In this document: positions 1,047 to 25,691 of the stretch, one piece after another
Numbering within the stretch: the stretch's first letter is position 1
How the letters are laid out: each line of letters opens with the position of its first letter
Source: Macrostomum lignano
Taxonomy: Eukaryota
Reading direction: 5' to 3'
Assembly: GCA_002269645.1 (NCBI GenBank)
Contig: NIVC01000669.1
Span: 1 to 64,000 of the forward strand
DNA length: 64,000 nt
The notes under the pieces: generated by a model
What the model saw: the letters and a program-made list of their open reading frames with translations, nothing else
The model's database searches: none
Told to the model about the DNA's origin: nothing
Translations under genes and position numbers: made by a program

Positions 1047-1049
1047 AAA

Positions 1050-1061: not shown

Positions 1062-1257
1062 ACGAAAAAACTCGTCCCGAGTTTGAATAAAAATATAAAT
1101 TTACAGAAACGTCTTGAACTTGATATTGTATATATTTATATTGCCGGTATGTTACATTGTATACATTATCAGTAGTTAGTTTTGTCAGAGTTAATGGAAA
1201 GTTATCGTCTGATAAATGCAGATGACACTTGCCCCTGTGTTGATGCCGCTCGGACGA

Positions 1258-1896
1258 TCAGCCGAACCCGATTTTGAGCACGGCGGATATCTGCTGCGCT
1301 GTTCGCGCAGCCAGACATGCCACCGCCCAGAATGTCGGCTGAAAGCGTGTGAAGCGCGGTTCCTCTGTGCGCTCGAGTATCATCAGGTAGGCGTCAATAC
1401 TCGTGAGTCCTGGGTGCTCGCGAGCCAGGCTCCTGGAAATTCCAAGGACGTGACGCCATGACTCCTGATGCCGGTGCGGCCACGGCCACGACCGGACGGC
1501 GATGGACAATTGCTCGAAGGTCAAGCTGTCCGGCTCCGCCAACGTCAACTCTGGCACTGGTGTTATTGTCGCCAACATCAGCGCCGTCGAATGGTTGACA
1601 GGAGCTAGACATTCGGTGCAGATCTCTATATCTCTTGCACCGTACCTTCGGAGACAGCTTGCACAGACCCAATGTCGGTTGGAACACACCTGAACATGGG
1701 GCTGTTCGCCGCATACCACACAGGTAGCCCGCGCGCGACGGCAGACCGGGCAGGTAGATAGCATGGTAACATTGCCATCCACCTGCTGCGCCATGGCGTC
1801 GCAGGAGACACACACGCGGTGTCCCCACTCACACGTCGGGATCATATAGTCCCGCGTCTCGAGACAGCAGGGGCATACGTCGTTGTTCTCGGCCAT
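1258..1896 (-). CDS. Retroelement accessory ORF3, double RING-HC (C3HC4) protein, 212 aa (copy A)
   Basis: CPCC-x10-CxxxH-x2-CxxC-x16-CPVC followed by CVVC-x8-CxxxH-x2-CxxC-x11-CTEC. Lies inside the element, same strand as pol. Confidence 0.85.
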   Translation of the reverse strand: MAENNDVCPCCLETRDYMIPTCEWGHRVCVSCDAMAQQVDGNVTMLSTCPVCRRARATCVVCGEQPHVQVCSNRHWVCASCLRRYGARDIEICTECLAPVNHSTALMLATITPVPELTLAEPDSLTFEQLSIAVRSWPWPHRHQESWRHVLGISRSLAREHPGLTSIDAYLMILERTEEPRFTRFQPTFWAVACLAARTAQQISAVLKIGFG

Positions 1897-1950
1897 CTGC
1901 GGGTTTTATGTAATCATCGTAATTAAAGCAGTCAGGGTGAAGTATACAGT

Positions 1951-2619
1951 CTACTGTGTATACCGTAAAAGCCATATGAAATAACTACGTGACAAAATTA
2001 GTCTTTTTAGCGCGTGGCAATATATGTGCAATGTCCAGTGAAACGCGTGATGGGCATGCAAAAATTGTCGTAGATGTCGTTCTATATCCAGGGGTAACAT
2101 ATGACGCAATATTCCTTGATTGTTATGTGCGTACAGTAGTAATTCATTGCGTGACCGTCGAGCGAAACGAGGTACTGGCCAAAACTCTAGCAACTGTTCG
2201 ATACGTATTGCGGGTAGTGTTCGAATATTATCAACATGTAAGCATCGATTGGCGTCGGGCTTGATGCGACACCACTTCTTGAAGGTGCTGTCCTTCGGCA
2301 TACTGTTACACATAGGGCATCCTATGATGCCCCTACTAGCGGTTCGTTTCAAGCATTGCATGCAAATAAAATGACTTTGATTACAGTATTGAAAGGTGCG
2401 CCACGAATAACAATAGGCGCACTGCGTCAGACTACTCCTACATAGGGGGCAGCTTTGCCAGTGTTGGATATGATGCGCGTCACACAAGCAAGTGCCGCAT
2501 ATGCGATGATTATTTATACAAATGGTTGGTGGTTTTTTATGCAGGTCATCTTCCAAACAGACAGGGCATTCATAGAGTTGCCGTGGCTGGGTCGCCAGTC
2601 TAGACTGTGCATTGCCCAT
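1951..2619 (-). CDS. Retroelement accessory ORF2, double RING-HC protein with N-myristoylation motif, 222 aa from first ATG (copy A)
   Basis: The track ORF starts at a GTG; the first ATG (2619) gives MGNAQS. CPVC-x12-CxxxH-x2-CxxC-x12-CPLC and CAYC-x8-CxxxH-x2-CxxC-x11-CPMC. Confidence 0.85.
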   Translation of the reverse strand: MGNAQSRLATQPRQLYECPVCLEDDLHKKPPTICINNHRICGTCLCDAHHIQHWQSCPLCRSSLTQCAYCYSWRTFQYCNQSHFICMQCLKRTASRGIIGCPMCNSMPKDSTFKKWCRIKPDANRCLHVDNIRTLPAIRIEQLLEFWPVPRFARRSRNELLLYAHNNQGILRHMLPLDIERHLRQFLHAHHAFHWTLHIYCHALKRLILSRSYFIWLLRYTQ

Positions 2620-2765
2620 AGTCGTTAGCCAAGCGTCAGTTGCGGTTATGTAGTCAATTGTAGAGTTCACTTGTGGAGTCGCTCGGATTAGTCGCCTCTT
2701 ACGACAAGCTTGCGAAGCTGTAGAGCTATTCTGACCCGGTCTCTACACGGGTTTGTTTTCGCAAC

Positions 2766-5700: not shown

Positions 5701-8700
5701 CCGCGTTCGGGTTGAAGATTTGTACTGGCAGCTGCTTATCTTTTGCCACCAGCACTAGTGCCGTAGGCATCATAATTTGGTGTTTAGCCGTGACTCTTCT
5801 GTTTGGGTCGAATATCATTGCTTCCTCCGTTGCGTTAGTTGCCTTTGCCTTTATCCAGCAGGCGCTCTCCGGTTGGATGATGACATCTTGTTGCAATGTT
5901 ACTTTTGGTAGTACTCGGATCTGGTTGATCAATGGTTGTTCTACCGAGTCGATCTTGAACGTTTGCTTATTGAAGTCGAAGGTCAATGGTAGTCGAAGCT
6001 GCTTGAACGTGTCGATGCCAACAATAACGTCCTGGTTTGGGAGTCTGTCGATGACGTACGTTGGAACTGTCAAATGTTTATTAGCGATTCTTAAATCAAT
6101 GTCGGCTTTTCCCAGAATGTTTAGCGAATGTCCTCCTGCTCCTGCAACTGCGATTGTTGCTGGCCGTAGAGCAAGTCGTAGCTTGTTGCACAGTTGTTTT
6201 GATATAACTGTAATGGAGCTGCCGGAGTCCAGTAACGCTCGACATGGTAGATTGTTGATTATAACTTGAGCCATTGCTTTGCCAATTTCGGCGTGTAGAG
6301 TACATACGTAGTTTTCTGGCCATTTTGGGTCTTGCTGTTCTGCTTGATAGTTAGGTGGTTGTATTCTTGGTGCCGTTGGTGTTGTCGGAATCGATGGATA
6401 TAGCCGCGTTGCTAGTGTCGGTTGCCCTTGAACCTCACGATGTGCAGTTTCTGTTAGTTCTAAACTGTTGTCGCCTTCCGTTGTCGTTCTTTGCATTATG
6501 GCATTCACTGTCTTCTTAGCTCTTGGACAAGTTTGACTGAAGCACCGTACGATTGACGAAATGATGAAGATTGCCGTGGCAATCCACACAATGCAAGCAC
6601 CGTAGAAGATGAATCCTTGATAGAGACTGCCTCTTCCATTGAGCAGCTCCCAGAAGCTGTTTGTCCAAAATGATTTGATGGCGCTGTCCATTGAAACAAG
6701 GACGGGAAATCTTCCTGTCCCGGTTCCTTTGTCCTTTCTTGTGAACAGCTGGTGAATCATCTTGCGTTGGGTGATGAACGCTTGCAAGAAGTCGTTGATC
6801 GTCCATCCTGGTGTTATTTCGTCAAGTTGGGTATCGGCGAATGGCCTATACTTTGTTCTGTTGAATCGGATTTTCAAATCCTCCATGTCGTAGTTTTCGT
6901 CGACGATTACTTCCGGTTCTGTGATGTTTGCTGTCGTTCCAGTTGTTTTGATGACGTGTAGTGCATTGTCCAGTTGATAGTAGTTCGCTGCCGTGGTGCA
7001 AGGTCTCGGTATTGCGGTGCCAACGATGATGTTGTGTACCGTGTCCAAGAATCCTTGAATTCGTTTTCCTTCGTAGAACGCTTCAATCCTTGGCTTGTCG
7101 TAGCAGGTTGTTGACGTGTTTGACGGCAAGATGTTGAAGTGCTGTATCGGCGTGCACTTGTATATCAACAGATGCTCGTATATTGGAACTGCCAAAACGT
7201 TCGTCATTCCGGTGATTTTACGAAAAGTCATCGTAGGGTTGACATAGTAGTTTTGTCTGGCATAATTTAAGTTGATTGCGTGCATTTTGCAAGTTAGCTG
7301 GACCAGTGTTCGATGCAAGTGGTTTAACTGGTTGTGTAGATTGTGATCCAAAGCCGTTATCTTTGCTGACAGTAGTCGGTTTGACACTAGTTTGGGACGT
7401 TCGATGTCTCGTCGTCGTCTGTTCTGTTGTTCCTGCTGTTGATACGTTCCGTTGATGATCGCCAGAAAGGTTTGTTTGTCGTCTTCTTTTACGTAGACTG
7501 GTATCTCTTGTTCCGAGATGAATAGTGTCTTGTCTGTATCCTTGCATTTCAGTTTTTGCTCGACTGGTTTCTTTTGAAACGTCAGTGCCAAGTCTCCTGA
7601 CTTTGCCAAAAACGTATTTGACAGTAGACCTCCTTCAACTGTGTGATACTTTTGAAGCTTGCAGTCAATTTCCGGCTCAACTTCCCACGCGAAGAAGTAT
7701 TGTCGTGACTTAGATGGTTCTTCATATCGTGAGTCGCCTCTGCGTATAATTTGCCATCGATAGTCTTGATGATATGTTGGACTCAACGGTAAGCTGTATA
7801 GTTCCTCATTCCGCAGTATCGGCGTTGGACACCATCCTTTGCTGTATCGGCAGTCGCTTAATTGCAGTTGTAGCGACTCCATTTTTTCAAAAGGATTGTG
7901 ATAGAATGGAATATTCCTGATTAGGTAACTGTTTCGTGTCATGTAGTTAGTCCATGCTTCCGAAAAGTGTACATATCGTCCGTTTGCTGAGTTCTTCGTT
8001 CGGTAAAGTTGTGCCTCCCCCACTTTCTCATCCGGTTCTAGCTGACCATCCTTTGAGAACAGTGTTTGGTTCCATTGTAGACATTCAGCGTGCGACACAT
8101 GTAGTTCGTGTTGCCAAAATCGAATTCTGTTCCACTGTCCTCGCCAAACTTTTTCCACTAGGTGCTTGTCTCTGAAGCACACTATTCCGTGTTGTCGATG
8201 CTTTTTGATGTTAGCCTTGTAGAGGTCGAGTGTAATCTTCTTTGGCTTCGTTTGGTTTGTCTTGAAGTAGCTGCATTTGATGTCGGTTGGTATCTTGTAG
8301 ATCATCGGTTGGATATGCGCATCCGTTGGACATATCATTGGTTTCTCCATTGCTGTTGCTTTGGTGACTACTGCCGTCAGTAGTATTATGATGATCCAGA
8401 ATATCCAGAATCGCCATTTTCTGAACGTTGCCGTTGTCTTTGCTGGCATTGGCTGCGGCTGCCATTCGTTATCTTCTGCGTCCGCATCGTATTCTTCCTC
8501 TTGTTCCATTGGCGTTTCCGAGCGCAAGGCATCCGATTCGTTCCGCTGCTTGTCGTCTTCATCATTTTCTTCCTTGCTTTCTTCCGATGTTGTAGTTGTG
8601 TCACTCCATTGTCTGCGGTACCTCACTTCGGCCTTGTAGTCGACCGTTTGAATGTAGGCTTCACCATTTCGTTTATATCGGATCTCGTAGCATTGATCGC

Positions 8701-10084
8701 TGTCGGAGCTTAGATTTCTTTCTTCCATTCCTTTGTGCCTTCCGTCTTCATGTGCTTTGTCGACGGCTTGGTTGTCATCAGCGTCATTGTGCATCTCATA
8801 ATCGTGATCGCTGCTTTCTTCTCGCTGTTCTTCTTCCATTTCTGCATTTCCGTCGTTGCTTATTTCGTTGTCATCCTTCGTTGCCAGTTCCTTGTCGTTG
8901 CCTTTGTTTGTTTCTTCTTTTCTTTCATTGATGTCGCTTGGCAATGTTTTTTCTGTGCTCACTTCTGCCTTTTCTTCTTCGCTGTCAATGTTAGTTTCTT
9001 TCATTTCGACCATGCTGATGTTTTTTGTCTTTTCGCTGCTCTCCGCATCGAGCCAGTCGATTTCATTGATAGTGAAGTCCATTTCTAAGTCGTCTATCGT
9101 GAAGACTTGCTGCTCTTGCTGTTCGCTTTCCGGTGTGTACGTGATGGCGTTTGCATATCGTTGCATCGCTTGCGTTGGTTGCTTGGGCATGTATCTGGCG
9201 TTTCGCGGTCTGTAGCCATTGTTTCCTAAGCGTTTCGTGTTTTGCTGCTGCCAATTTTGATGCTGTTGCCATGGTTTTTGCTGCTTCCGTCTGTTGAATG
9301 GCTGTCGCGGCATATCATTTCTTGTTGACCGATGAGGACAATGTATTTGGTAGTGTCCTTCTCGTCCACAGTAATAGCATCTGGCTTGGGCTCGTTCATT
9401 TCGTCTTTTTTGTTCGGCGATAACGGCTGTTTGATGTTGCATCAGCTTGTTTAGTTGCTGTGTCAGTTTCTGCACTTCTGTGTTGCCGGTTGTCATTAGT
9501 GGAGCGCTTGCTTCCCACTGCATTCCGCACCGTAAAAGGTCTTCCTCGGTTTCAATGTTTTCGCGCAAAAGTCTATCCCGCAGTGACGGCTGTGCATTGT
9601 TTATTACGTGCAGGATGAGGTTTTGTTCACGGTCCATCAATCGTTGTCGCTCTCTTGCGGCTAACTCCGCTGCGCCTGGAGGTGGCTGATCCGCCGCTGG
9701 CAGCGTTGGCTGATGCAGTGCCTTAATTATTTGACGTATATCGTCCACGAAGGTCAGGAAGGATTCTGTTGGCTGCATCCGTCTGTTATGCAACTTGTGC
9801 AGTAGCACTGACCTGTTTGTGCCACAGCGGTTGAAGTGTGCGCGCAGTTGAATGATTAATGCTGGGTAGTTTTGCTGTGTTGCCGCGTCTAGTTTACCAT
9901 AAATCTCTCGTGCGGTGCCTTGGAGGAGTGGTGGCAACAGTTGCGCTTTTTCTGGATTTTGTAGGTTGTATTCCCTACATACCAGGTCAAAATGATCAAC
10001 AAAGGTGTTAAAGTCTTTTTCCATAGAAAAGGTGCCAACTGTCTCTTTGATATCTCTGTGCACCGTTGGATTGCGCCGCGCCAT
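2766..10084 (-). pseudogene. Gag-Env-Pol polyprotein, copy A, split by a 1-nt deletion at ~4336 in RNase H (real lesion or consensus error)
   Basis: 1918-aa ORF (4328-10084) plus 550-aa ORF (2766-4418) equal the 2439-aa ORF of copy B. Plus strand tcgtcgtattgg here versus tcgtcggtattgg in copy B. Confidence 0.9.
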
Positions 10085-10767
10085 GTTGTTGATGGGATAG
10101 AACGGTAGCTCTAGGTCTGGGTCGATTTGTAATGGATCTTCCAGTGTGGTGTTTCTTTCGAAATAAACTTCGGTTGTAACTGATTGTCTCGCGGCGCTTT
10201 TGACACCTCAATTTGTTATGTCTGACCTTGAGCGGAATTCGGCTTTTGGCTGCTTTTTCTGACCTCTTATTCGCTGGCTGATTTTCGCACTTATGCGGCG
10301 TCCCGCAAAGTGTATCTTTAAAGTGCTTGAAGTGCAGCTGCTTCTTGCTTTTTTCAAAGGCCTTTCTTGTCTTCGTGACGTGCCTTGTCACGTTTTATCA
10401 AATTTCGGTTTGTTTTAGCTTTCGTCAAGTGTTTTTAATTTCGGTTTTGTTTTAGTGTGTATTGATTATTTTTCGGTTTGTTTTCAGTGTACCGGACGTT
10501 GTTTTCGGTTTTGTTTAAGGTTTACTCTTGCTCGAGCTCGTTAAAAACAAAAATTTAACACGCGTGCTCAAACGTTACTCAAAATTGACAGGTACTCAAG
10601 CCTGTATATCGAAACTTTTACTCGCGTTTCAAATCGTAAAAAAATCGAAAAGTGTCGAAAAATTTTACCTCTAACACGTGCGCGCAAAATTAATGAAGTC
10701 GCTCTTTCGTCACGTTACAATAGCTTGATCAGGGCTATTGCTCAAAGTTTGAGTAGTGCCGAGAGGG

Positions 10768-10778
10768 CGAGATCACCA
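10768..10778 (-). other. Primer-binding site, copy A (TGGTGATCTCG; tentatively tRNA-Trp); copy B at 21555-21565
   Basis: TGG start 2 nt after the LTR end CA. Pairs with the metazoan tRNA-Trp 3' end (CGGGGUCACCA) over 11 nt with two G:U wobbles. tRNA identity is uncertain. Confidence 0.65.
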
Positions 10779-10780
10779 AT

Positions 10781-11832
10781 TGATGTGTTCCTTATTACCA
10801 GTCCTCAGCTGTAATCAAGGAACAATCACTTCTAGCTCTGTAGCTAGGCAACCCAGTAATCAAATGAAGGTATGTATTACCTTGAGTCCTGTCTCTGAGA
10901 GCTCTTCCGTGTTCTGTTATTCTCGGACTTCCTTTGAACCTCGAACTTCGTTAGACGTCTATGTTCGTAACCAGGTCCGCGTTCCTTTACGTCCACTGAA
11001 GTCGTTTCCGGCCGGTATCTGTAGTGCGGACCAATGGGAAGCTTCCAAATCAACAATGGGTACCCTGCGCCAATCTGCGGTTTAATATAAGCCTACTCCT
11101 TCTAGCAGTGCCTCCATGCACTCTAGGTATAGCTCCGGAAACCACTGATAGTCTTCTAAGATCTATCAGGGGCAGTCCTTCTGGAGACTGCAACCAGCAG
11201 AGTCTAAACAGACTCAGGAGTCTCAACAGACTCAAATAAACTCAAGTCTCAATAGACTTGAGCGAGACGTCTCAACCAACAGGCGCAAATGAGTAAGGCT
11301 TACCGCAAGAACTCGTCCACGACGCGAGTTTCTTCAGGAAGGCTTCGCTAGAGCTTCCTCTTCGGAGCTTCTCTCTCTTGGAGATTTCTTGGCTCCGGGT
11401 CCGTTCCGGACCACTTGTATTTATAGGCGTTCAGACCTCTCTCGAGGTCGTACATCACTGTCTTCGCAAATGTCAAAGGGTCACGATTCGGTGGCTGTCA
11501 AGCATGACAGGGTAGAAAGTTGCGCAACTAGTCTACTGTAAAAGCGCATGATTGGTTACCGTAGCTGGTAGACTTTGATTGGTTCATCCGGGTGCAACCC
11601 GAGTGCAAACCAAATGATGACTTGAAGGTGGGGTTTGAATTGACAGTTGTTGGTCGCACGTGATTGGGTGATTTCTAAAATTAGCATGCTCGAGATTTCT
11701 CTCTTTCTATTGGTTAATTCGAATATATGTATGGTTCAGCGCATATCCTTATACATGCTCCTCAAATTACTACTATTTAAGTAGTACGTTAACAATTTTA
11801 AATAACTTTTCTGGGAGATATAATACTCTACA
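10781..11832 (-). repeat. Shared middle LTR (5' LTR of copy A = 3' LTR of copy B), 1052 bp
   Basis: Flanked by the PBS on the left and the PPT on the right. TG...CA termini (left edge could be 10784). No differences from 21568-22619 seen by eye. Confidence 0.95.
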
Positions 11833-12043
11833 AAATCTCCCTTTTTTACGAAAAAACTCGTCCCGAGTTTGAATAAAAATATAAATTTACAGAAACGTCT
11901 TGAACTTGATATTGTATATATTTATATTGCCGGTATGTTACATTGTATACATTATCAGTAGTTAGTTTTGTCAGAGTTAATGGAAAGTTATCGTCTGATA
12001 AATGCAGATGACACTTGCCCCTGTGTTGATGCCGCTCGGACGA

Positions 12044-12682
12044 TCAGCCGAACCCGATTTTGAGCACGGCGGATATCTGCTGCGCTGTTCGCGCAGCCAG
12101 ACATGCCACCGCCCAGAATGTCGGCTGAAAGCGTGTGAAGCGCGGTTCCTCTGTGCGCTCGAGTATCATCAGGTAGGCGTCAATACTCGTGAGTCCTGGG
12201 TGCTCGCGAGCCAGGCTCCTGGAAATTCCAAGGACGTGACGCCATGACTCCTGATGCCGGTGCGGCCACGGCCACGACCGGACGGCGATGGACAATTGCT
12301 CGAAGGTCAAGCTGTCCGGCTCCGCCAACGTCAACTCTGGCACTGGTGTTATTGTCGCCAACATCAGCGCCGTCGAATGGTTGACAGGAGCTAGACATTC
12401 GGTGCAGATCTCTATATCTCTTGCACCGTACCTTCGGAGACAGCTTGCACAGACCCAATGTCGGTTGGAACACACCTGAACATGGGGCTGTTCGCCGCAT
12501 ACCACACAGGTAGCCCGCGCGCGACGGCAGACCGGGCAGGTAGATAGCATGGTAACATTGCCATCCACCTGCTGCGCCATGGCGTCGCAGGAGACACACA
12601 CGCGGTGTCCCCACTCACACGTCGGGATCATATAGTCCCGCGTCTCGAGACAGCAGGGGCATACGTCGTTGTTCTCGGCCAT
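12044..12682 (-). CDS. Retroelement accessory ORF3, double RING-HC protein (copy B)
   Basis: Translation identical to 1258-1896. Confidence 0.85.
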   Translation of the reverse strand: MAENNDVCPCCLETRDYMIPTCEWGHRVCVSCDAMAQQVDGNVTMLSTCPVCRRARATCVVCGEQPHVQVCSNRHWVCASCLRRYGARDIEICTECLAPVNHSTALMLATITPVPELTLAEPDSLTFEQLSIAVRSWPWPHRHQESWRHVLGISRSLAREHPGLTSIDAYLMILERTEEPRFTRFQPTFWAVACLAARTAQQISAVLKIGFG

Positions 12683-12736: not shown

Positions 12737-13405
12737 CTACTGTGTATACCGTAAAAGCCATATGAAATAACTACGTGACAAAATTAGTCTTTTTAGCGCG
12801 TGGCAATATATGTGCAATGTCCAGTGAAACGCGTGATGGGCATGCAAAAATTGTCGTAGATGTCGTTCTATATCCAGGGGTAACATATGACGCAATATTC
12901 CTTGATTGTTATGTGCGTACAGTAGTAATTCATTGCGTGACCGTCGAGCGAAACGAGGTACTGGCCAAAACTCTAGCAACTGTTCGATACGTATTGCGGG
13001 TAGTGTTCGAATATTATCAACATGTAAGCATCGATTGGCGTCGGGCTTGATGCGACACCACTTCTTGAAGGTGCTGTCCTTCGGCATACTGTTACACATA
13101 GGGCATCCTATGATGCCCCTACTAGCGGTTCGTTTCAAGCATTGCATGCAAATAAAATGACTTTGATTACAGTATTGAAAGGTGCGCCACGAATAACAAT
13201 AGGCGCACTGCGTCAGACTACTCCTACATAGGGGGCAGCTTTGCCAGTGTTGGATATGATGCGCGTCACACAAGCAAGTGCCGCATATGCGATGATTATT
13301 TATACAAATGGTTGGTGGTTTTTTATGCAGGTCATCTTCCAAACAGACAGGGCATTCATAGAGTTGCCGTGGCTGGGTCGCCAGTCTAGACTGTGCATTG
13401 CCCAT
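12737..13405 (-). CDS. Retroelement accessory ORF2, myristoylation motif plus double RING-HC (copy B)
   Basis: Translation identical to copy A; ATG at 13405 gives MGNAQS. Confidence 0.85.
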   Translation of the reverse strand: MGNAQSRLATQPRQLYECPVCLEDDLHKKPPTICINNHRICGTCLCDAHHIQHWQSCPLCRSSLTQCAYCYSWRTFQYCNQSHFICMQCLKRTASRGIIGCPMCNSMPKDSTFKKWCRIKPDANRCLHVDNIRTLPAIRIEQLLEFWPVPRFARRSRNELLLYAHNNQGILRHMLPLDIERHLRQFLHAHHAFHWTLHIYCHALKRLILSRSYFIWLLRYTQ

Positions 13406-13551: not shown

Positions 13552-16500
13552 TTAACGAGGTCGCAGATTATAGCCGTGCGGCTGGCTCTCGTTCGTTGTT
13601 TGAGTCTCCTCGTGCTTCGTTGCGATGTGGCGGTTTGTCGAACGCGTGCGGTCGGCATTGTCAAGTGACGGTAGAAATGTCGCCGTGTCAGTGTTGATCC
13701 TTTTCAATCGATGAATGTGCACGTAGAATTGGTGCTGATGAGGATCTTGCACATTGGCCAGGCGTGCCGTTGTCGGTAACGTTAGTTGGACCACTCGATA
13801 TGGTCCTTTGTACTTCTGTGCGTGTTTGTGCGTCTGTTGTGGCGGATAGTGCAGGTAGACGATGTCGCCGGCTGTCAGAGTTGTCGATCTCGTGTCGGTG
13901 CCGGTGGTCAGAGCCACCTGATTGTCGATGTTGTGCTTGGCTACTTTCCATGCGAGGTGTAGTTGCGTGACGAACTTTTGAATGGACGTCGGGACTTCCA
14001 CATATTGCGATGGTAGTAGTTGCTGTGCCAATAGGTTTGGCGGCTGGAAGTCTCGCCCAAACATTAGAAAGAATGGCGTATTATCCGTTGATCGATGAAT
14101 AGCGCTGTTGTAGGCCATTGTTACTGCTTGCAGATAGATGATCCAGTCGTCCGGTTGTTGATGCGCGAAGTGTGTAATCATCTCGTGTAGGTTGCGGTGA
14201 AACCTTTCAACCATGTTCGCCTTCGGATTGTAGGTCGATGTGTAGATCTGCGTGATGTTGAGGATCTTCACCACTTGCTGAAAGAGTTGAGACGTAAACT
14301 GCGATCCATTGTCCGATGTGAGGTTCTTTGGCGTACCGTACTTGCAGATGATGTCGTTGAAGAAACCCATTGCCACTGTCTGAGCTGTGATGTCCGGTAT
14401 TGGTATGGCAATAGCAAACTTTGAGAAAATGTCCAAGGCTGTTAGGATGTAGGTGTAGGCTATGCCATGGAGACAGCTCGGTGGCAGCGGTCCGGTGATG
14501 TCGATGCTGAGACAGTCCATAGTCGTTGACTTCGGTATCGATTGTAGCTGTGGTTTTTGTCGTCGTCCTGTCTTTGATGCTGCGCATGAGTGGCAGTTAT
14601 TGCAATACTGCTTGATGTCGCCATGCATGCTTGGCCAAAAGTAGTATTGCTCCACTCTTGCAATGGTTTTGGCTGCCGACAGGTGTCCAGCGAGTGGGTT
14701 GTCGTGCAGCTCGTTGAGAATGGCCTGCCTAAACGAATATGGCATGTAGATTTTAGGTTTGTTGTCACTCATCCAGTAGAGTCGTGTCTTGTTGATTGTT
14801 AAATGTTGTCGCTGCTTGCGCAGGAATTTTCGTTCCACGGGGCTGAGCTTGATGTCCTTGTCGTTGTTTTTAACTGCTATGTAGAAGTTGTCGTGTTCAG
14901 TCTCATCCACCAATTCCTTGATGTTAGGGATTGGATGAATGGCGTTGACTTCGTAGGTTCTTGACAGAGATACCGCCGCCTTGTTAGTAATTCCTGGTTT
15001 GTAGACGAGCTTGTAGTTGTAGTCCTGGATCTTGAGTGTCATCCTGATGAGTCGGTTGTTTGTTTGTCCTTTTGTAGTTACGACGTAGGTCAGCGGTGCG
15101 TGATCTGTGCGTACTATCGTCGGTATTGGAGAACCATAGATGTAGTAATGGAACTGTCGTAGGGCGAACAAGACTCCTAGTAGTTCTCGTTCCGTAGCGG
15201 ACCATTTTGTCTCATTCGGTTTAAGTGCTCGACTGACGTAGGCTATAGGTCGTTCCTTTTTGTCTTCAGTTTCCTGTAGTAGGACTGCTCCGAGTCCCGT
15301 TCCTGAGGCGTCTGTCTCGATGATGAAGGGTTTGTCGAAGTCCGGATGCTGTAGCAGTGCGTCTGATGTCAGCTGTCGTTTGATTTCGTCAAAACTTTCT
15401 TGTTGCTTTTGTGTCCAATTATCCTGCTTCCATTTGTCGAACTTGAGCAGGTCGTACAGCGGCTTTGCTGTCTTCGCGAAGTTGGGTAAGAACTTTCGGA
15501 AGTATTGCGCTAGTCCAAGAAATGATTGGACCTTCGTTATGCTAGTTGGTGTAGGAAACTTCTTTACTTTCTCCACATTGTCTGGGTCCGGTGAGATTCC
15601 TTTGGCTGTCACTTGGTGTCCTAGGTAACGTACGTTGTCTCGGAAGAATTTGCATTTCGTCGGTTGTAGCTTAAGACCTTGGCGTTGAATGAGCGCTAGG
15701 GCCTTCTCCGTAGCTTCATAGAGTCGTTGGAAGTCTTCTCCGTAGGCCAAGATGTCGTCGACATAGTGCAGCAGGTTTGTGCATCCTGCAAGCATGTATG
15801 CCGTTAGTCGGCTCATTGTTGCTGGGCTGTTGCTGAGTCCCATTGGCGACCGGTTGTACTCGTAGACTTGTCCATTGTAGGTTTTGAAAGCCGTGTACTG
15901 TCGTGATTCTTTCTCGATTTCAATTTGCCAAAATCCATGACGTAGGTCGAACACCGTGAACAATTTTGCTGTGTTGAGCTTTGCTAGTAGCTCGGAGATC
16001 TTTGGTAGGCTTTGCTGATCCGTCGGTATGTACTTGTTCAGCAGTCTGAAGTCGCATACAAGTCGTCTTTCGTTAGTCTCCTTCTTTTGTACCAGTAGGC
16101 ACGGTGAGGAATAGGCTGAAATTGCTTTGCTGATGATGCCGTGCTTTAGCATTTTATCGATAATTTCATCAAAGTGTTGTTGCAGATGTTTGGCAATCGG
16201 GTACGGCTTGCATTGAATTGGTTCCGTGTGCGGTAGAAGCTTGATTTCTTGTTTAATGTCTTTAGCGCGTCCGATGTCGTAATCATGATGGCAGAAGGCT
16301 TCGTTGTACTTCCACAACAGTTGTCGAACTTTCTTCTTTTGCTGTTCCGTGATCGGGCTGTCGTCCAAGTTGATTTTCTTTTGAAATTCTTCTTCTGTTA
16401 GTCGTGGAGTCGTGTGCTCAATCAGCATAACTGATGCTTGAGTGTTGAGATGACCGATGCACATTCCTTGTCGTAGATGAACCATTTCCGCGTTCGGGTT

Positions 16501-19500
16501 GAAGATTTGTACTGGCAGCTGCTTATCTTTTGCCACCAGCACTAGTGCCGTAGGCATCATAATTTGGTGTTTAGCCGTGACTCTTCTGTTTGGGTCGAAT
16601 ATCATTGCTTCCTCCGTTGCGTTAGTTGCCTTTGCCTTTATCCAGCAGGCGCTCTCCGGTTGGATGATGACATCTTGTTGCAATGTTACTTTTGGTAGTA
16701 CTCGGATCTGGTTGATCAATGGTTGTTCTACCGAGTCGATCTTGAACGTTTGCTTATTGAAGTCGAAGGTCAATGGTAGTCGAAGCTGCTTGAACGTGTC
16801 GATGCCAACAATAACGTCCTGGTTTGGGAGTCTGTCGATGACGTACGTTGGAACTGTCAAATGTTTATTAGCGATTCTTAAATCAATGTCGGCTTTTCCC
16901 AGAATGTTTAGCGAATGTCCTCCTGCTCCTGCAACTGCGATTGTTGCTGGCCGTAGAGCAAGTCGTAGCTTGTTGCACAGTTGTTTTGATATAACTGTAA
17001 TGGAGCTGCCGGAGTCCAGTAACGCTCGACATGGTAGATTGTTGATTATAACTTGAGCCATTGCTTTGCCAATTTCGGCGTGTAGAGTACATACGTAGTT
17101 TTCTGGCCATTTTGGGTCTTGCTGTTCTGCTTGATAGTTAGGTGGTTGTATTCTTGGTGCCGTTGGTGTTGTCGGAATCGATGGATATAGCCGCGTTGCT
17201 AGTGTCGGTTGCCCTTGAACCTCACGATGTGCAGTTTCTGTTAGTTCTAAACTGTTGTCGCCTTCCGTTGTCGTTCTTTGCATTATGGCATTCACTGTCT
17301 TCTTAGCTCTTGGACAAGTTTGACTGAAGCACCGTACGATTGACGAAATGATGAAGATTGCCGTGGCAATCCACACAATGCAAGCACCGTAGAAGATGAA
17401 TCCTTGATAGAGACTGCCTCTTCCATTGAGCAGCTCCCAGAAGCTGTTTGTCCAAAATGATTTGATGGCGCTGTCCATTGAAACAAGGACGGGAAATCTT
17501 CCTGTCCCGGTTCCTTTGTCCTTTCTTGTGAACAGCTGGTGAATCATCTTGCGTTGGGTGATGAACGCTTGCAAGAAGTCGTTGATCGTCCATCCTGGTG
17601 TTATTTCGTCAAGTTGGATATCGGCGAATGGCCTATACTTTGTTCTGTTGAATCGGATTTTCAAATCCTCCATGTCGTAGTTTTCGTCGACGATTACTTC
17701 CGGTTCTGTGATGTTTGCTGTCGTTCCAGTTGTTTTGATGACGTGTAGTGCATTGTCCAGTTGATAGTAGTTCGCTGCCGTGGTGCAAGGTCTCGGTATT
17801 GCGGTGCCAACGATGATGTTGTGTACCGTGTCCAAGAATCCCTGAATTCGTTTTCCTTCGTAGAACGCTTCAATCCTTGGCTTGTCGTAGCAGGTTGTTG
17901 ACGTGTTTGACGGCAAGATGTTGAAGTGCTGTATCGGCGTGCACTTGTATATCAACAGATGCTCGTATATTGGAACTGCCAAAACGTTCGTCATTCCGGT
18001 GATTTTACGAAAAGTCATCGTAGGGTTGACATAGTAGTTTTGTCTGGCATAATTTAAGTTGATTGCGTGCATTTTGCAAGTTAGCTGGACCAGTGTTCGA
18101 TGCAAGTGGTTTAACTGGTTGTGTAGATTGTGATCCAAAGCCGTTATCTTTGCTGACAGTAGTCGGTTTGACACTAGTTTGGGACGTTCGATGTCTCGTC
18201 GTCGTCTGTTCTGTTGTTCCTGCTGTTGATACGTTCCGTTGATGATCGCCAGAAAGGTTTGTTTGTCGTCTTCTTTTACGTAGACTGGTATCTCTTGTTC
18301 CGAGATGAATAGTGTCTTGTCTGTATCCTTGCATTTCAGTTTTTGCTCGACTGGTTTCTTTTGAAACGTCAGTGCCAAGTCTCCTGACTTTGCCAAAAAC
18401 GTATTTGACAGTAGACCTCCTTCAACTGTGTGATACTTTTGAAGCTTGCAGTCAATTTCCGGCTCAACTTCCCACGCGAAGAAGTATTGTCGTGACTTAG
18501 ATGGTTCTTCATATCGTGAGTCGCCTCTGCGTATAATTTGCCATCGATAGTCTTGATGATATGTTGGACTCAACGGTAAGCTGTATAGTTCCTCATTCCG
18601 CAGTATCGGCGTTGGACACCATCCTTTGCTGTATCGGCAGTCGCTTAATTGCAGTTGTAGCGACTCCATTTTTTCAAAAGGATTGTGGTAGAATGGAATA
18701 TTCCTGATTAGGTAACTGTTTCGTGTCATGTAGTTAGTCCATGCTTCCGAAAAGTGTACATATCGTCCGTTTGCTGAGTTCTTCGTTCGGTAAAGTTGTG
18801 CCTCCCCCACTTTCTCATCCGGTTCTAGCTGACCATCCTTTGAGAACAGTGTTTGGTTCCATTGTAGACATTCAGCGTGCGACACATGTAGTTCGTGTTG
18901 CCAAAATCGAATTCTGTTCCACTGTCCTCGCCAAACTTTTTCCACTAGGTGCTTGTCTCTGAAGCACACTATTCCGTGTTGTCGATGCTTTTTGATGTTA
19001 GCCTTGTAGAGGTCGAGTGTAATCTTCTTTGGCTTCGTTTGGTTTGTCTTGAAGTAGCTGCATTTGATGTCGGTTGGTATCTTGTAGATCATCGGTTGGA
19101 TATGCGCATCCGTTGGACATATCATTGGTTTCTCCATTGCTGTTGCTTTGGTGACTACTGCCGTCAGTAGTATTATGATGATCCAGAATATCCAGAATCG
19201 CCATTTTCTGAACGTTGCCGTTGTCTTTGCTGGCATTGGCTGCGGCTGCCATTCGTTATCTTCTGCGTCCGCATCGTATTCTTCCTCTTGTTCCATTGGC
19301 GTTTCCGAGCGCAAGGCATCCGATTCGTTCCGCTGCTTGTCGTCTTCATCATTTTCTTCCTTGCTTTCTTCCGATGTTGTAGTTGTGTCACTCCATTGTC
19401 TGCGGTACCTCACTTCGGCCTTGTAGTCGACCGTTTGAATGTAGGCTTCACCATTTCGTTTATATCGGATCTCGTAGCATTGATCGCTGTCGGAGCTTAG

Positions 19501-20871
19501 ATTTCTTTCTTCCATTCCTTTGTGCCTTCCGTCTTCATGTGCTTTGTCGACGGCTTGGTTGTCATCAGCGTCATTGTGCATCTCATAATCGTGATCGCTG
19601 CTTTCTTCTCGCTGTTCTTCTTCCATTTCTGCATTTCCGTCGTTGCTTATTTCGTTGTCATCCTTCGTTGCCAGTTCCTTGTCGTTGCCTTTGTTTGTTT
19701 CTTCTTTTCTTTCATTGATGTCGCTTGGCAATGTTTTTTCTGTGCTCACTTCTGCCTTTTCTTCTTCGCTGTCAATGTTAGTTTCTTTCATTTCGACCAT
19801 GCTGATGTTTTTTGTCTTTTCGCTGCTCTCCGCATCGAGCCAGTCGATTTCATTGATAGTGAAGTCCATTTCTAAGTCGTCTATCGTGAAGACTTGCTGC
19901 TCTTGCTGTTCGCTTTCCGGTGTGTACGTGATGGCGTTTGCATATCGTTGCATCGCTTGCGTTGGTTGCTTGGGCATGTATCTGGCGTTTCGCGGTCTGT
20001 AGCCATTGTTTCCTAAGCGTTTCGTGTTTTGCTGCTGCCAATTTTGATGCTGTTGCCATGGTTTTTGCTGCTTCCGTCTGTTGAATGGCTGTCGCGGCAT
20101 ATCATTTCTTGTTGACCGATGAGGACAATGTATTTGGTAGTGTCCTTCTCGTCCACAGTAATAGCATCTGGCTTGGGCTCGTTCATTTCGTCTTTTTTGT
20201 TCGGCGATAACGGCTGTTTGATGTTGCATCAGCTTGTTTAGTTGCTGTGTCAGTTTCTGCACTTCTGTGTTGCCGGTTGTCATTAGTGGAGCGCTTGCTT
20301 CCCACTGCATTCCGCACCGTAAAAGGTCTTCCTCGGTTTCAATGTTTTCGCGCAAAAGTCTATCCCGCAGTGACGGCTGTGCATTGTTTATTACGTGCAG
20401 GATGAGGTTTTGTTCACGGTCCATCAATCGTTGTCGCTCTCTTGCGGCTAACTCCGCTGCGCCTGGAGGTGGCTGATCCGCCGCTGGCAGCGTTGGCTGA
20501 TGCAGTGCCTTAATTATTTGACGTATATCGTCCACGAAGGTCAGGAAGGATTCTGTTGGCTGCATCCGTCTGTTATGCAACTTGTGCAGTAGCACTGACC
20601 TGTTTGTGCCACAGCGGTTGAAGTGTGCGCGCAGTTGAATGATTAATGCTGGGTAGTTTTGCTGTGTTGCCGCGTCTAGTTTACCATAAATCTCTCGTGC
20701 GGTGCCTTGGAGGAGTGGTGGCAACAGTTGCGCTTTTTCTGGATTTTGTAGGTTGTATTCCCTACATACCAGGTCAAAATGATCAACAAAGGTGTTAAAG
20801 TCTTTTTCCATAGAAAAGGTGCCAACTGTCTCTTTGATATCTCTGTGCACCGTTGGATTGCGCCGCGCCAT
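13552..20871 (-). CDS. Single-ORF Gag-Env-PR-RT-RNaseH-IN polyprotein, 2439 aa (copy B)
   Basis: Capsid-like N terminus; CYYCGREGHYQIHC knuckle aa236-249; LLDSGS protease D1286; RT YVDD aa1703-1706; RNase H IIETDASG D1854; integrase HHCC, DDE (SIDITGP/TSDNGSQF/VERFHR) and GPY; C-terminal YNLRPR. No stop or frameshift. Confidence 0.97.
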   Translation of the reverse strand: MARRNPTVHRDIKETVGTFSMEKDFNTFVDHFDLVCREYNLQNPEKAQLLPPLLQGTAREIYGKLDAATQQNYPALIIQLRAHFNRCGTNRSVLLHKLHNRRMQPTESFLTFVDDIRQIIKALHQPTLPAADQPPPGAAELAARERQRLMDREQNLILHVINNAQPSLRDRLLRENIETEEDLLRCGMQWEASAPLMTTGNTEVQKLTQQLNKLMQHQTAVIAEQKRRNERAQARCYYCGREGHYQIHCPHRSTRNDMPRQPFNRRKQQKPWQQHQNWQQQNTKRLGNNGYRPRNARYMPKQPTQAMQRYANAITYTPESEQQEQQVFTIDDLEMDFTINEIDWLDAESSEKTKNISMVEMKETNIDSEEEKAEVSTEKTLPSDINERKEETNKGNDKELATKDDNEISNDGNAEMEEEQREESSDHDYEMHNDADDNQAVDKAHEDGRHKGMEERNLSSDSDQCYEIRYKRNGEAYIQTVDYKAEVRYRRQWSDTTTTSEESKEENDEDDKQRNESDALRSETPMEQEEEYDADAEDNEWQPQPMPAKTTATFRKWRFWIFWIIIILLTAVVTKATAMEKPMICPTDAHIQPMIYKIPTDIKCSYFKTNQTKPKKITLDLYKANIKKHRQHGIVCFRDKHLVEKVWRGQWNRIRFWQHELHVSHAECLQWNQTLFSKDGQLEPDEKVGEAQLYRTKNSANGRYVHFSEAWTNYMTRNSYLIRNIPFYHNPFEKMESLQLQLSDCRYSKGWCPTPILRNEELYSLPLSPTYHQDYRWQIIRRGDSRYEEPSKSRQYFFAWEVEPEIDCKLQKYHTVEGGLLSNTFLAKSGDLALTFQKKPVEQKLKCKDTDKTLFISEQEIPVYVKEDDKQTFLAIINGTYQQQEQQNRRRRDIERPKLVSNRLLSAKITALDHNLHNQLNHLHRTLVQLTCKMHAINLNYARQNYYVNPTMTFRKITGMTNVLAVPIYEHLLIYKCTPIQHFNILPSNTSTTCYDKPRIEAFYEGKRIQGFLDTVHNIIVGTAIPRPCTTAANYYQLDNALHVIKTTGTTANITEPEVIVDENYDMEDLKIRFNRTKYRPFADIQLDEITPGWTINDFLQAFITQRKMIHQLFTRKDKGTGTGRFPVLVSMDSAIKSFWTNSFWELLNGRGSLYQGFIFYGACIVWIATAIFIISSIVRCFSQTCPRAKKTVNAIMQRTTTEGDNSLELTETAHREVQGQPTLATRLYPSIPTTPTAPRIQPPNYQAEQQDPKWPENYVCTLHAEIGKAMAQVIINNLPCRALLDSGSSITVISKQLCNKLRLALRPATIAVAGAGGHSLNILGKADIDLRIANKHLTVPTYVIDRLPNQDVIVGIDTFKQLRLPLTFDFNKQTFKIDSVEQPLINQIRVLPKVTLQQDVIIQPESACWIKAKATNATEEAMIFDPNRRVTAKHQIMMPTALVLVAKDKQLPVQIFNPNAEMVHLRQGMCIGHLNTQASVMLIEHTTPRLTEEEFQKKINLDDSPITEQQKKKVRQLLWKYNEAFCHHDYDIGRAKDIKQEIKLLPHTEPIQCKPYPIAKHLQQHFDEIIDKMLKHGIISKAISAYSSPCLLVQKKETNERRLVCDFRLLNKYIPTDQQSLPKISELLAKLNTAKLFTVFDLRHGFWQIEIEKESRQYTAFKTYNGQVYEYNRSPMGLSNSPATMSRLTAYMLAGCTNLLHYVDDILAYGEDFQRLYEATEKALALIQRQGLKLQPTKCKFFRDNVRYLGHQVTAKGISPDPDNVEKVKKFPTPTSITKVQSFLGLAQYFRKFLPNFAKTAKPLYDLLKFDKWKQDNWTQKQQESFDEIKRQLTSDALLQHPDFDKPFIIETDASGTGLGAVLLQETEDKKERPIAYVSRALKPNETKWSATERELLGVLFALRQFHYYIYGSPIPTIVRTDHAPLTYVVTTKGQTNNRLIRMTLKIQDYNYKLVYKPGITNKAAVSLSRTYEVNAIHPIPNIKELVDETEHDNFYIAVKNNDKDIKLSPVERKFLRKQRQHLTINKTRLYWMSDNKPKIYMPYSFRQAILNELHDNPLAGHLSAAKTIARVEQYYFWPSMHGDIKQYCNNCHSCAASKTGRRQKPQLQSIPKSTTMDCLSIDITGPLPPSCLHGIAYTYILTALDIFSKFAIAIPIPDITAQTVAMGFFNDIICKYGTPKNLTSDNGSQFTSQLFQQVVKILNITQIYTSTYNPKANMVERFHRNLHEMITHFAHQQPDDWIIYLQAVTMAYNSAIHRSTDNTPFFLMFGRDFQPPNLLAQQLLPSQYVEVPTSIQKFVTQLHLAWKVAKHNIDNQVALTTGTDTRSTTLTAGDIVYLHYPPQQTHKHAQKYKGPYRVVQLTLPTTARLANVQDPHQHQFYVHIHRLKRINTDTATFLPSLDNADRTRSTNRHIATKHEETQTTNESQPHGYNLRPR
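17335..19212 (-). other. Envelope-like type I glycoprotein domain inside the polyprotein (aa554-1179; copy A 6548-8425), gB/chuvirus-like class III fusogen candidate
   Basis: Internal signal FRKWRFWIFWIIIILLTAVVTKATA, Cys-rich ectodomain with N-glycosylation sequons (NQT, NGT, NTS, NIT, NRT), furin site RRRR (aa889-892), long helix ending in C...NP...G...A...C-x-P-I as in gB domain III/IV, TM FIFYGACIVWIATAIFIISSIV. Confidence 0.8.
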
Positions 20872-21567
20872 GTTGTTGATGGGATAGAACGGTAGCTCTA
20901 GGTCTGGGTCGATTTGTAATGGATCTTCCAGTGTGGTGTTTCTTTCGAAATAAACTTCGGTTGTAACTGATTGTCTCGCGGCGCTTTTGACACCTCAATT
21001 TGTTATGTCTGACCTTGAGCGGAATTCGGCTTTTGGCTGCTTTTTCTGACCTCTTATTCGCTGGCTGATTTTCGCACTTATGCGGCGTCCCGCAAAGTGT
21101 ATCTTTAAAGTGCTTGAAGTGCAGCTGCTTCTTGCTTTTTTCAAAGGCCTTTCTTGTCTTCGTGACGTGCCTTGTCACGTTTTATCAAATTTCGGTTTGT
21201 TTTAGCTTTCGTCAAGTGTTTTTAATTTCGGTTTTTTTTTAGTGTGTATTGATTATTTTTCGGTTTGTTTTCAGTGTACCGGACGTTGTTTTCGGTTTTG
21301 TTTAAGGTTTACTCTTGCTCGAGCTCGTTAAAAACAAAAATTTAACACGCGTGCTCAAACGTTACTCAAAATTGACAGGTACTCAAGCCTGTATATCGAA
21401 ACTTTTACTCGCGTTTCAAATCGTAAAAAAATCGAAAAGTGTCGAAAAATTTTACCTCTAACACGTGCGCGCAAAATTAATGAAGTCGCTCTTTCGTCAC
21501 GTTACAATAGCTTGATCAGGGCTATTGCTCAAAGTTTGAGTAGTGCCGAGAGGGCGAGATCACCAAT

Positions 21568-22619
21568 TGATGTGTTCCTTATTACCAGTCCTCAGCTGTA
21601 ATCAAGGAACAATCACTTCTAGCTCTGTAGCTAGGCAACCCAGTAATCAAATGAAGGTATGTATTACCTTGAGTCCTGTCTCTGAGAGCTCTTCCGTGTT
21701 CTGTTATTCTCGGACTTCCTTTGAACCTCGAACTTCGTTAGACGTCTATGTTCGTAACCAGGTCCGCGTTCCTTTACGTCCACTGAAGTCGTTTCCGGCC
21801 GGTATCTGTAGTGCGGACCAATGGGAAGCTTCCAAATCAACAATGGGTACCCTGCGCCAATCTGCGGTTTAATATAAGCCTACTCCTTCTAGCAGTGCCT
21901 CCATGCACTCTAGGTATAGCTCCGGAAACCACTGATAGTCTTCTAAGATCTATCAGGGGCAGTCCTTCTGGAGACTGCAACCAGCAGAGTCTAAACAGAC
22001 TCAGGAGTCTCAACAGACTCAAATAAACTCAAGTCTCAATAGACTTGAGCGAGACGTCTCAACCAACAGGCGCAAATGAGTAAGGCTTACCGCAAGAACT
22101 CGTCCACGACGCGAGTTTCTTCAGGAAGGCTTCGCTAGAGCTTCCTCTTCGGAGCTTCTCTCTCTTGGAGATTTCTTGGCTCCGGGTCCGTTCCGGACCA
22201 CTTGTATTTATAGGCGTTCAGACCTCTCTCGAGGTCGTACATCACTGTCTTCGCAAATGTCAAAGGGTCACGATTCGGTGGCTGTCAAGCATGACAGGGT
22301 AGAAAGTTGCGCAACTAGTCTACTGTAAAAGCGCATGATTGGTTACCGTAGCTGGTAGACTTTGATTGGTTCATCCGGGTGCAACCCGAGTGCAAACCAA
22401 ATGATGACTTGAAGGTGGGGTTTGAATTGACAGTTGTTGGTCGCACGTGATTGGGTGATTTCTAAAATTAGCATGCTCGAGATTTCTCTCTTTCTATTGG
22501 TTAATTCGAATATATGTATGGTTCAGCGCATATCCTTATACATGCTCCTCAAATTACTACTATTTAAGTAGTACGTTAACAATTTTAAATAACTTTTCTG
22601 GGAGATATAATACTCTACA
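21568..22619 (-). repeat. 5' LTR of copy B, 1052 bp; right end of the array
   Basis: Similarity to the other LTRs stops after ...TACTCTACA; host flank begins aacacggg. Confidence 0.95.
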
Positions 22620-24463: not shown

Positions 24464-24908
24464 AGCCAGAGTGCAGCTATAATCTGTGACTTTAAACAAA
24501 AATTTAAAATATATTGTTTCGAGTTGGTTAATATACGTAGTATACACTTAAAAAACTGCTTTTCTGTTCTTCAATTTGAACTGGTTTGGGTCTTGTTTAA
24601 ATTGGGCTTTGTGAAAAATTATTGAAGAACCAAAGTTAGCTTTTTGAACTTCCTAGTACTTGTGCTACACTATATTTTTGATCTAAAAAATCTGAGTTAA
24701 GAGCTAACGACAATTTATAAAGTAAGAGCAATAAAAGTTTATACTTAGTCTATAGCTGCGATGTGTTGAATCTAAATAAGATAATTTAAACATGCTTTCG
24801 CAAGGTGTACAACGAGCATGTACACTGTGCCTTGTCGGTCGGCCATCGTGCGTGTGAATCGCAGGACCACTCTCTGAGCCAATTTTTGTGTACACGAGCC
24901 CCAAACGA

Positions 24909-25691
24909 ATGTTGCCCCCTCTGAATCAAGTAGGGGTCGTAACGCAAGAGTCTGGCCTCGTTTACCTCTCTGAGCTGCTCTGCCCCACCTGGTCTAGCTC
25001 GACTTCCACCCCAACCGCTCCCGCAGTTCCGGAGCCAGCCCGCCGGCGCCCTCTGACCGCTAGCGGCACTTTTCCAGCAGCACCGGCGTCGAAGCGGCGG
25101 CCATCGACCACAAGAAGCCGATGCCGGACTTCATCGTCAACGGCGCTGCCGCTGGCCCGGTTTGACGCCGGAGAAGCAGCCGATTTCGATGCGGCTGGCG
25201 TGGCGGCCGAGGTGGAGCTGCAAGAACTGGCCGTGCTGTGCCTGCTGTGCCAGGTGCTGCAGACCGACGACCCATCAGTAGTGCACGCCTGGCTGTCCGG
25301 AGCCAGCGAACGCGAGAAGGCACTGGTAGCCGGGGTGCTCAAGACTGCTCTGGACGCTTGGACACTCGACCGAAGCCGACAACATCAGGAGCAGCAACGG
25401 CTGATGCCGTCCAGTCCGAAACAGATCGACCGCCTGGTCATCGATTTTGAGCAGCGAGAACCGCGCGGTCAGGCTGAGAAACCAGCCGCCGCTCGGACAG
25501 ACAACCGCCGTCCGCACCGGCCGGCCGGCTGGCCAATTCGGCTGCTCCGTCCGCAGACGGGCGACGAGGCGACAGTGGCGCCGAGGCAACGCGAACGAGG
25601 CCGGCTGCTGTCGCCGCAGATGCCGCCGCCGCCGCCGCCGCCGCCTCCGCCGCTTCGCGCAGGACACGCGCTTGCAGGAAAGTTGAGGTAA
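24909..25691 (+). CDS. TBATA/SPATIAL-like coding segment (terminal exon or short gene; 5' boundary uncertain)
   Basis: ELQELAVLCLLCQVLQTDDPSVVHAWLSGASEREKALVAGVLKTAL (~25215-25352) resembles, from memory, the conserved TBATA C-terminal motif (QEL.VL.LLCQILQTD....WL..A...EK.L...L.TA). Coding-like GC bias. Confidence 0.55.
   Translation: MLPPLNQVGVVTQESGLVYLSELLCPTWSSSTSTPTAPAVPEPARRRPLTASGTFPAAPASKRRPSTTRSRCRTSSSTALPLARFDAGEAADFDAAGVAAEVELQELAVLCLLCQVLQTDDPSVVHAWLSGASEREKALVAGVLKTALDAWTLDRSRQHQEQQRLMPSSPKQIDRLVIDFEQREPRGQAEKPAAARTDNRRPHRPAGWPIRLLRPQTGDEATVAPRQRERGRLLSPQMPPPPPPPPPPLRAGHALAGKLR

Follow-up and report, generated by a model that had tools for sequence, protein, structure and literature searches.

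A Ty3/gypsy retroelement of Macrostomum lignano with a gB-type envelope inside a single Gag-Env-Pol reading frame

Introduction

Contig NIVC01000669.1 of the flatworm Macrostomum lignano carries, within the 64,000 nucleotides (nt) analysed here (positions 1 to 64,000; the window), a retroelement with long terminal repeats (LTRs) whose Gag, envelope (Env) and Pol proteins are encoded in one open reading frame (ORF). The ORF lies on the minus strand at 13552-20871, where the plus strand is closed. It specifies 2439 amino acids (aa), counted from the first methionine of the frame, at 20871, from which all aa numbers given here start; from stop to stop (20994 to 13552), the frame comprises 2480 aa. 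The anatomy of the element, the gB-type fold of its Env, its copy number and the coding constraint across all junctions are established. Beyond these, the element is probably (at roughly 0.7) a recently multiplied, envelope-bearing member of the Ty3/gypsy group that would be made as one polyprotein threaded through the endoplasmic reticulum (ER), and whose Env tail would drive budding through the endosomal sorting complexes required for transport (ESCRT). The element is of a known kind and probably belongs to a family that has already been listed; its Gag-Env-Pol order is not new.

Domain architecture and classification

An earlier note, made from the letters of this DNA alone, had described a single uninterrupted frame of 2439 aa containing Gag with a CCHC motif, an acidic spacer, a signal sequence, an ectodomain with an RRRR site, a transmembrane anchor (TM), protease (PR), reverse transcriptase (RT), RNase H (RH) and integrase (IN), in this order. 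The frame is stop-free as described, and every domain lies where the note had placed it. Gag (20107-20871) consists of a capsid region and a CCHC knuckle (20125-20166; aa 236-249). Its Pfam matches are all sub-threshold, and it is 28% identical to the Gag of a sister family (E 2e-26). The spacer (19237-19854) is rich in acidic residues (33% D+E) and evolves fast, with the frame retained. It is followed by the putative internal signal sequence (19138-19236), recognised from hydropathy and motifs: a basic n-region, a hydrophobic core (hydrophobic stretch at aa 555-580, peak 2.19) and an A-T-A cleavage motif whose last residue is aa 578. The ectodomain (17404-19137) contains 12 Cys residues, six sequons for N-glycans and the furin-type RRRR (18196-18207; aa 889-892). 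A second hydrophobic stretch (aa 1154-1184, peak 2.31) includes the TM, a predicted stop-transfer sequence at 17335-17403 (approximately aa 1157-1179). The linker between TM and PR (17056-17334), predicted to be cytosolic, bears the motifs LYPSI (17176-17190), PTAP (17155-17166) and PPNY (17134-17145). In Pol, Pfam matches identify the aspartic protease (16786-17055; DSG; aa 1273-1362), RT with YVDD and RH (15019-16089; aa 1595-1754 and 1819-1951, respectively), and the H2C2 and core domains of IN (aa 2044-2216). The integrase region (13786-14742) also includes a C-terminal GPY motif, with KGPY at aa 2355.

By every feature tested, the element is a member of Ty3/gypsy (Metaviridae), as the earlier note had held. 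The Pfam order PR-RT-RH-IN is that of Ty3/gypsy, and in a ranking of PDB entries by similarity, RT-RH matches Ty3 RT best (E 5e-67), ahead of the next entry (4e-47), foamy virus (5e-44) and murine leukaemia virus-type enzymes (approximately 4e-35). LTRs with TG...CA ends, a tRNA primer site and a polypurine tract are likewise present. The BEL/Pao markers Peptidase_A17 and DUF5641 are absent from the Pfam scan of the ORF, though present in one relative (P0051). The three-knuckle Gag of BEL/Pao was not seen either; there is one CCHC only, and a match to DUF1759 is sub-threshold. The RT is approximately 30% identical to that of a named nematode relative (P0017), and in the RT tree (10 rows, unrooted) as well as the env tree, two flatworm families form a branch of their own, apart from P0017.

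The envelope has a gB-type class III fold

Searches with the single sequence returned no env match on the ORF in Pfam, and phmmer against the PDB gave nothing relevant. A profile of 28 related sequences matches herpesvirus gB with an E value of 2e-18, and aligns with gB the helix and NPT motif on which the earlier note had based its comparison; the motifs quoted there begin at aa 907, 949 and 975. The AlphaFold model of the ectodomain (pLDDT 72.5; predicted template-modelling score, pTM, 0.45) has a central helix of 46 residues. Compared with gB in the PDB, it gives a Foldseek E value of 3e-21 and a Z score of 12.1 over 399 residues, with a root-mean-square deviation (rmsd) of 10.9. The model also matches G proteins of the nyami-, chu- and rhabdo-like type, with E values down to 6e-24 and Nyavirus G among the top viral matches. 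Profile and structural match thus bear out the gB-type Env of the earlier note: the modelled fold is that of a gB-type class III fusogen. The class is clear; identity to gB and G proteins is 10-16%, and proteins of herpes, nyami-, chu- and entomopox viruses obtain similar scores, which single out no donor virus lineage.

The furin-type site itself differs among subfamilies (RRRR versus RQRR; L009, L010), with R-x-R/K-R retained.

Continuity of the frame across copies and relatives

The junction between LTR and primer-binding site (PBS) occurs 76 times in the genome (71 exact, five with one mismatch), against none in the control. The copies at 20 of the remaining 74 PBS sites were fetched in contig order. 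Among these copies, Gag to Env forms one frame in 12, TM to PR in 15 and CCHC to IN in three, with L008, in which env is deleted, left out of the Env-PR and CCHC-to-IN counts. The whole frame is intact in one copy and lacking in the other 19; the breaks are scattered, mostly within folded domains, and are not fixed at the junctions.

The sister family (P0005), whose RT is 41% identical, has a stop-free genomic frame of 2859-2866 codons at four loci, and further families have frames of 2724-2818 codons. Short-read contigs from independent runs span aa ~440-595 without gaps in all four runs (to approximately aa 587 in one) and aa ~1034-1240, the TM together with most of the tail, in three of four; of the 15 indels recorded for these contigs, none of the 12 listed falls within the ORF. 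An independent record (P0003; 97% match) joins env to pol. The earlier note had also proposed a search for relatives with the same order. In a wide library, 56 env matches were found, with CCHC upstream in 21, a protease motif downstream in 18, and both in one predicted protein in 12; PR or RT upstream of env was found in none of the 56. Some of these matches are gene models, and P0002, a spliced gene-model artefact, is included in the tally but is not taken as evidence. A signal-like stretch precedes the start of env in 21 of 21 proteins inspected.

For the ectodomain, the ratio of nonsynonymous to synonymous substitution (dN/dS) is 0.08-0.12; the tail gives 0-0.20 and the spacer 0.36-0.38. 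These values come from five pairwise comparisons, three of which are effectively independent. Taken together, the copies, the sister family, the contigs, the env matches and the dN/dS values argue for a Gag-Env-Pol fusion that is old, shared and translated.

Several further observations concern these copies and relatives. The P0005 family (G000:C270, C1672, C4280, C247) is a second Gag-Env-Pol family, with 2852 aa and approximately 220 extra residues within env, annotated merely as hypothetical protein or RNA-directed DNA polymerase. Two aspartic-protease motifs follow the env TM in P0036, P0048 and P0019. Synonymous divergence from 13552-20871 varies sharply along the ORF in L002, L010 and L011 (for one pair, 0.88 in Gag, 0.31 in env, 0.11 in the tail and 0.96 in PR), which suggests recombination between subfamilies. 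In L008 and L024, an internal in-frame deletion leaves integrase joined to Gag, the signal and a portion of env, with the RING ORFs (see below) retained in L024; such deleted copies are possibly non-autonomous forms.

Late-domain-like motifs in the Env tail

LYPSI, PTAP and PPNY fall within 19 residues of the 93-aa linker that connects the TM to the protease. Apart from PTAP and PPNY, the ORF contains no P(T/S)AP or PPxY motif. All 19 copies that cover the tail retain motifs of the late type, including divergent forms (PPNY to PPTY, LYPSI to MYPSI), and in the sister family, whose tail has diverged, PSAP and LYPTL occur. The tails of 32 relatives contain 10 such motifs, where 1.5 are expected from composition shuffles, and none of 5000 shuffles reached 10; P0011 (TM mis-picked) and P0051 (BEL/Pao) were excluded from this test. 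The same test on the Gag-Env spacers gave three motifs against 0.9 expected (P 0.07).

Proposed expression and assembly

In the proposed mechanism, the genomic RNA would be translated as a single polyprotein. Gag would be synthesised in the cytosol, after which the internal signal (approximately aa 555-578) would insert with its N-terminus inside and its C-terminus outside, and signal peptidase would cut after A578. The signal stub would hold Gag until the element's own protease releases it. In the ER, the ectodomain would be glycosylated and trimerise, and furin would cut at RRRR. The TM would stop transfer, and the tail and PR-RT-RH-IN would therefore be cytosolic, hanging from the Env trimer; Pol would in this way be brought to the budding site, and dimerisation of the protease might be favoured. 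The LYPSI, PTAP and PPxY motifs of the tail are predicted to recruit ALIX, TSG101 and NEDD4-type ligases, and for this reason, the late-domain function for budding would be supplied by the Env tail rather than by Gag. The double-RING proteins encoded in the 3' region would act as accessory ubiquitin ligases, with separate RNAs as their probable source.

The topology proposed in the earlier note agrees with the distribution of charges. Four K/R and no D/E precede the internal signal, and four K/R and no D/E follow the TM, a pattern that fits a cytosolic Gag, a lumenal ectodomain, and a cytosolic tail and Pol. From the same topology, the earlier note derived a putative tethering of both Gag and Pol to the membrane. 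The A-T-A motif ending at aa 578 is retained in both subfamilies.

A number of points weigh against this interpretation. The global fit of the ectodomain to gB is modest (TM-score ~0.34, rmsd 10-20 Å, pTM 0.45). Both the signal peptide and the TM are assigned from hydropathy alone. A 1:1:1 ratio of Gag, Env and Pol, as put forward in the earlier note, would be awkward for a capsid, and no device that would alter it was found. A late motif occurs in only eight of the 32 relatives' tails, and LYPSI differs from the canonical YPxL. Breaks lie at aa 1188-1205, directly after the TM, in three of the 20 copies, and three more lie near aa 558-600; they are read here as probable errors or decay. Met546 is retained in both subfamilies and could start an Env-Pol product. 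Finally, the label 'RNA' for the three sequencing runs referred to below is a guess, and the interpretation rests on DNA sequence.

A -1 slippery heptamer at aa 353 was considered as a source of extra Gag and rejected: it was present in 10 of 20 copies scored, is absent from the other subfamily, and has no downstream structure (approximately -2 to -3 kcal/mol).

The problem of the capsid ratio would be solved by a second explanation, in which the continuous DNA frame is expressed in parts: extra Gag, or Env-Pol, would come from spliced, trans-spliced or internally initiated RNA, and the full polyprotein would be a minor product. Spliced gag RNA of the copia type is a precedent, Met546 stands just before the signal in both subfamilies as a potential internal start, and the 3' RING ORFs need a subgenomic route in any case. 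Against this, no splice-type joint was seen among 15 of the 17 joints in the three runs guessed to be RNA, from contigs that drop rare forms. The sole pyrimidine-rich acceptor on the sense strand lies at aa 2199, Met546 is missing from the sister families, and the spacer is still under coding constraint. Split expression is rated unlikely, though it is not negligible.

A third explanation is considerably less probable. The element might be purely intracellular, with Env an in-frame passenger or a membrane scaffold for assembly. An in-frame position does shield env from frameshifts and stops whatever its function, and infectivity is not reported for any GAG-ENV-POL element in the accessible text of Chary and Hayashi (PMC13524379; statements on this and the other papers cited here refer to the text accessible to us). 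However, position in the frame does not explain an ectodomain dN/dS of approximately 0.1, a retained furin site or the late motifs, and copies with an in-frame deletion of env (L008; related L024) are few, with one among the 20 fetched.

A merger of separate ORFs through misassembly or a single mutation event, as the 19 incomplete frames and the tandem pair at the contig end might suggest, is largely refuted and very improbable, because the LTR-PBS junction recurs 76 times and the sister family has the same single frame, open at four loci, while breaks are not fixed at junctions, independent short-read contigs span both junction regions gap-free and P0003 joins env to pol; the true in-frame fusion assumed by the earlier note is thereby upheld.

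The single ER-threaded polyprotein is thus preferred, and a more detailed version of it can be put forward tentatively, with the odds somewhat against the whole. Budding function would have shifted from Gag to the Env tail, the ESCRT late domains would reside in the Env-PR linker of the threaded polyprotein, Env would also deliver Pol, and a clade-specific, expandable double-RING array would aid release or counter host defence.

Double-RING accessory ORFs

Two ORFs that encode RING-like proteins lie 3' of pol, both on the minus strand. Accessory ORF 1 (12737-13405; 222 aa) has two RING-like C-x2-C...C-x2/3-H...C motifs and matches the Sina RING in Pfam below the cut-off. Its N-terminus, MGNAQS, is a possible myristoylation signal, and reads MGNAQS or MGNALS in 14 fetched copies where it could be read. 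Accessory ORF 2 (12044-12682; 212 aa) is a double-RING-like paralogue of ORF 1 (30% identity, E 5e-7). A possibly myristoylated RING protein recalls arenavirus Z. No homologue of ORF 1 was found in the protein database; its matches in the Atlas resource are all <=0.90 and serve as leads only, and the fold predicted from the single sequence is unusable (pLDDT 37).

In related families, two to at least four RING ORFs stand behind integrase, without a myristoylation-type N-terminus; the motif was therefore rejected as a clade-wide trait, the first RING ORFs of these families lacking it. RING ORFs are truncated in many copies. In one related element (L023; G000:C4009:39000-48900), at least four RING-type ORFs follow integrase over approximately 8 kb, split by a mariner-like transposase on the opposite strand. 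It appears that duplication enlarges the accessory array.

Other features of the element and the window

The element that carries the ORF measures 11.8 kb and is one of two tandem units, 99.9% identical, which have the middle LTR in common. Its 5' LTR (21568-22619, minus strand; 1052 nt) has TG...CA ends, TATAAAT approximately 410 nt inside, and a sequence identical to that of the middle LTR (10781-11832, minus strand); no heat-shock element was found in the LTR. The PBS (21552-21565, minus strand) is complementary over 14 nt to the 3' end, including CCA, of the host tRNA-Val(AAC), and the polypurine tract (11836-11847, minus strand) precedes the 3' LTR. In the second unit (1047-10780, minus strand), the long frame is broken once, by a single-base indel near 4335 in the RNase H region. 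The third LTR (1-1046, minus strand) is cut by the contig start. The family occurs in head-to-tail arrays on several contigs (G000:C1130, with five PBS sites, C2447, C2121 and C87), at spacings of approximately 9.7-10.8 kb; such arrays may reflect genuine insertion in tandem or, where they lie at contig ends, sequence duplicated during assembly.

An antisense open frame of 191 codons over the protease in both units (16481-17056 and 5694-6269, plus strand) is probably a shadow of the coding strand. Beside the insertion, an open frame at 24858-25691 (plus strand) with a match to the SPATIAL domain (E 2e-12) is probably a host gene exon. From 27000 to 64000, dense and varied minisatellite arrays (units of 8-40 nt) account for most long ORFs.

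Comparison with known systems

The earlier note had left open whether the domain order was new. It is not: Chary and Hayashi (eLife 2026; PMC13524379) describe errantiviruses from Nematoda, Bryozoa and Platyhelminthes that follow the GAG-ENV-POL order and have an ENV of the gB type. Their nine flatworm elements include one from M. lignano, Platyhelminthes_Rhabditophora_Mlig_errantivirus_2, with 16 copies (PMC13524379). It has in common with the present element the Ty3/gypsy pol, the gB-type env, the GAG-ENV-POL order, the host species and the same 12-nt PBS, separated from the LTR by 2 nt. With 9727 from LTR to LTR, it matches in length a shorter subfamily found here (9731 between two PBS sites), whereas the copy in the window has a spacing of 10787 nt and two intact RING ORFs. 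Mlig_errantivirus_2 is probably a shorter subfamily of the same family, an assignment based on PBS, length, host and env type. The family may also be among the 137 of a survey of M. lignano LTR elements (PMC12801592).

Chary and Hayashi credit the GAG-ENV-POL order in nematodes to Sacco et al. (2022; J Gen Virol, doi 10.1099/jgv.0.001739), whose nematode endogenous retroviruses (NERV) have env before pol, like the present element (PMC13524379). Further features of the published gB-type GAG-ENV-POL class are found here as well: env stands between gag and pol, and the ectodomain is flanked by a signal peptide and a TM. NERV, as described by Sacco in 2022, is said to have a continuous gag-env-pro-pol ORF, an env resembling nyami/chu-type G, and extra 3' ORFs. 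The continuous ORF is present in our element. Monophyly with the nematode elements and a chromadorean host, the other reported NERV traits, were not found; the host is a flatworm and the RT branch is separate. The accessory ORFs are double RINGs, unlike the extra 3' ORFs that NERV reportedly has.

In the main text of PMC13524379, there is no mention of polyprotein, in-frame fusion, splicing, frameshift, RING, accessory, late domain, ESCRT or budding. Likewise, in their accessible text, a study of extra ORFs in rotifers (PMC5408684) does not mention RING, the M. lignano LTR survey (main text; PMC12801592) mentions neither envelope nor RING, and the Troyka paper (PMC12440569) has nothing on gag-env-pol order. 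No report of late domains or RING ORFs in a gypsy element was found in the literature searched, with subscription journals and the text of Sacco 2022 outside it. The apparent additions, not found in print, are the double-RING array and the cluster of late-domain-like motifs in the Env tail. How a Gag-Env-Pol polyprotein crosses the ER, balances Gag and Pol, and buds is unaddressed in the accessible papers. For M. lignano, a flatworm model, both transgenics and RNA-seq exist (PMC12801592), and since the family is multi-copy and under purifying selection, these questions can be addressed in the natural host, with the late-domain cluster as a concrete handle on budding.

Among other systems, Atlas virus, a belpaovirus of Ancylostoma, has a Gag-Pol-Env polyprotein of 2828 aa (PMC9094657). 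The statement in the earlier note that env is normally a separate 3' ORF was too strong, because Env of Atlas virus lies inside a single stop-free polyprotein, as it does here. The two differ in pol, which in Atlas virus is of the BEL/Pao type, in env, which is class II and phlebovirus-like there, and in order: with Gag-Pol-Env, Pol does not lie downstream of a membrane pass. With herpesvirus gB and the G proteins of monjiviricetes and chuviruses, the element Env has the fold and the central helix in common. Retroviral late domains bind TSG101 (PTAP), ALIX (YPxL) and NEDD4 (PPxY) from within Gag (PMC8952333); the same three motif classes, with binding predicted from motif matches, occur in the element, located instead in the linker between Env tail and protease. 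If the proposed mechanism is true, the element would follow an assembly route unlike that of retroviruses or insect errantiviruses and, if confirmed, would represent an independent way to build an enveloped reverse-transcribing particle.

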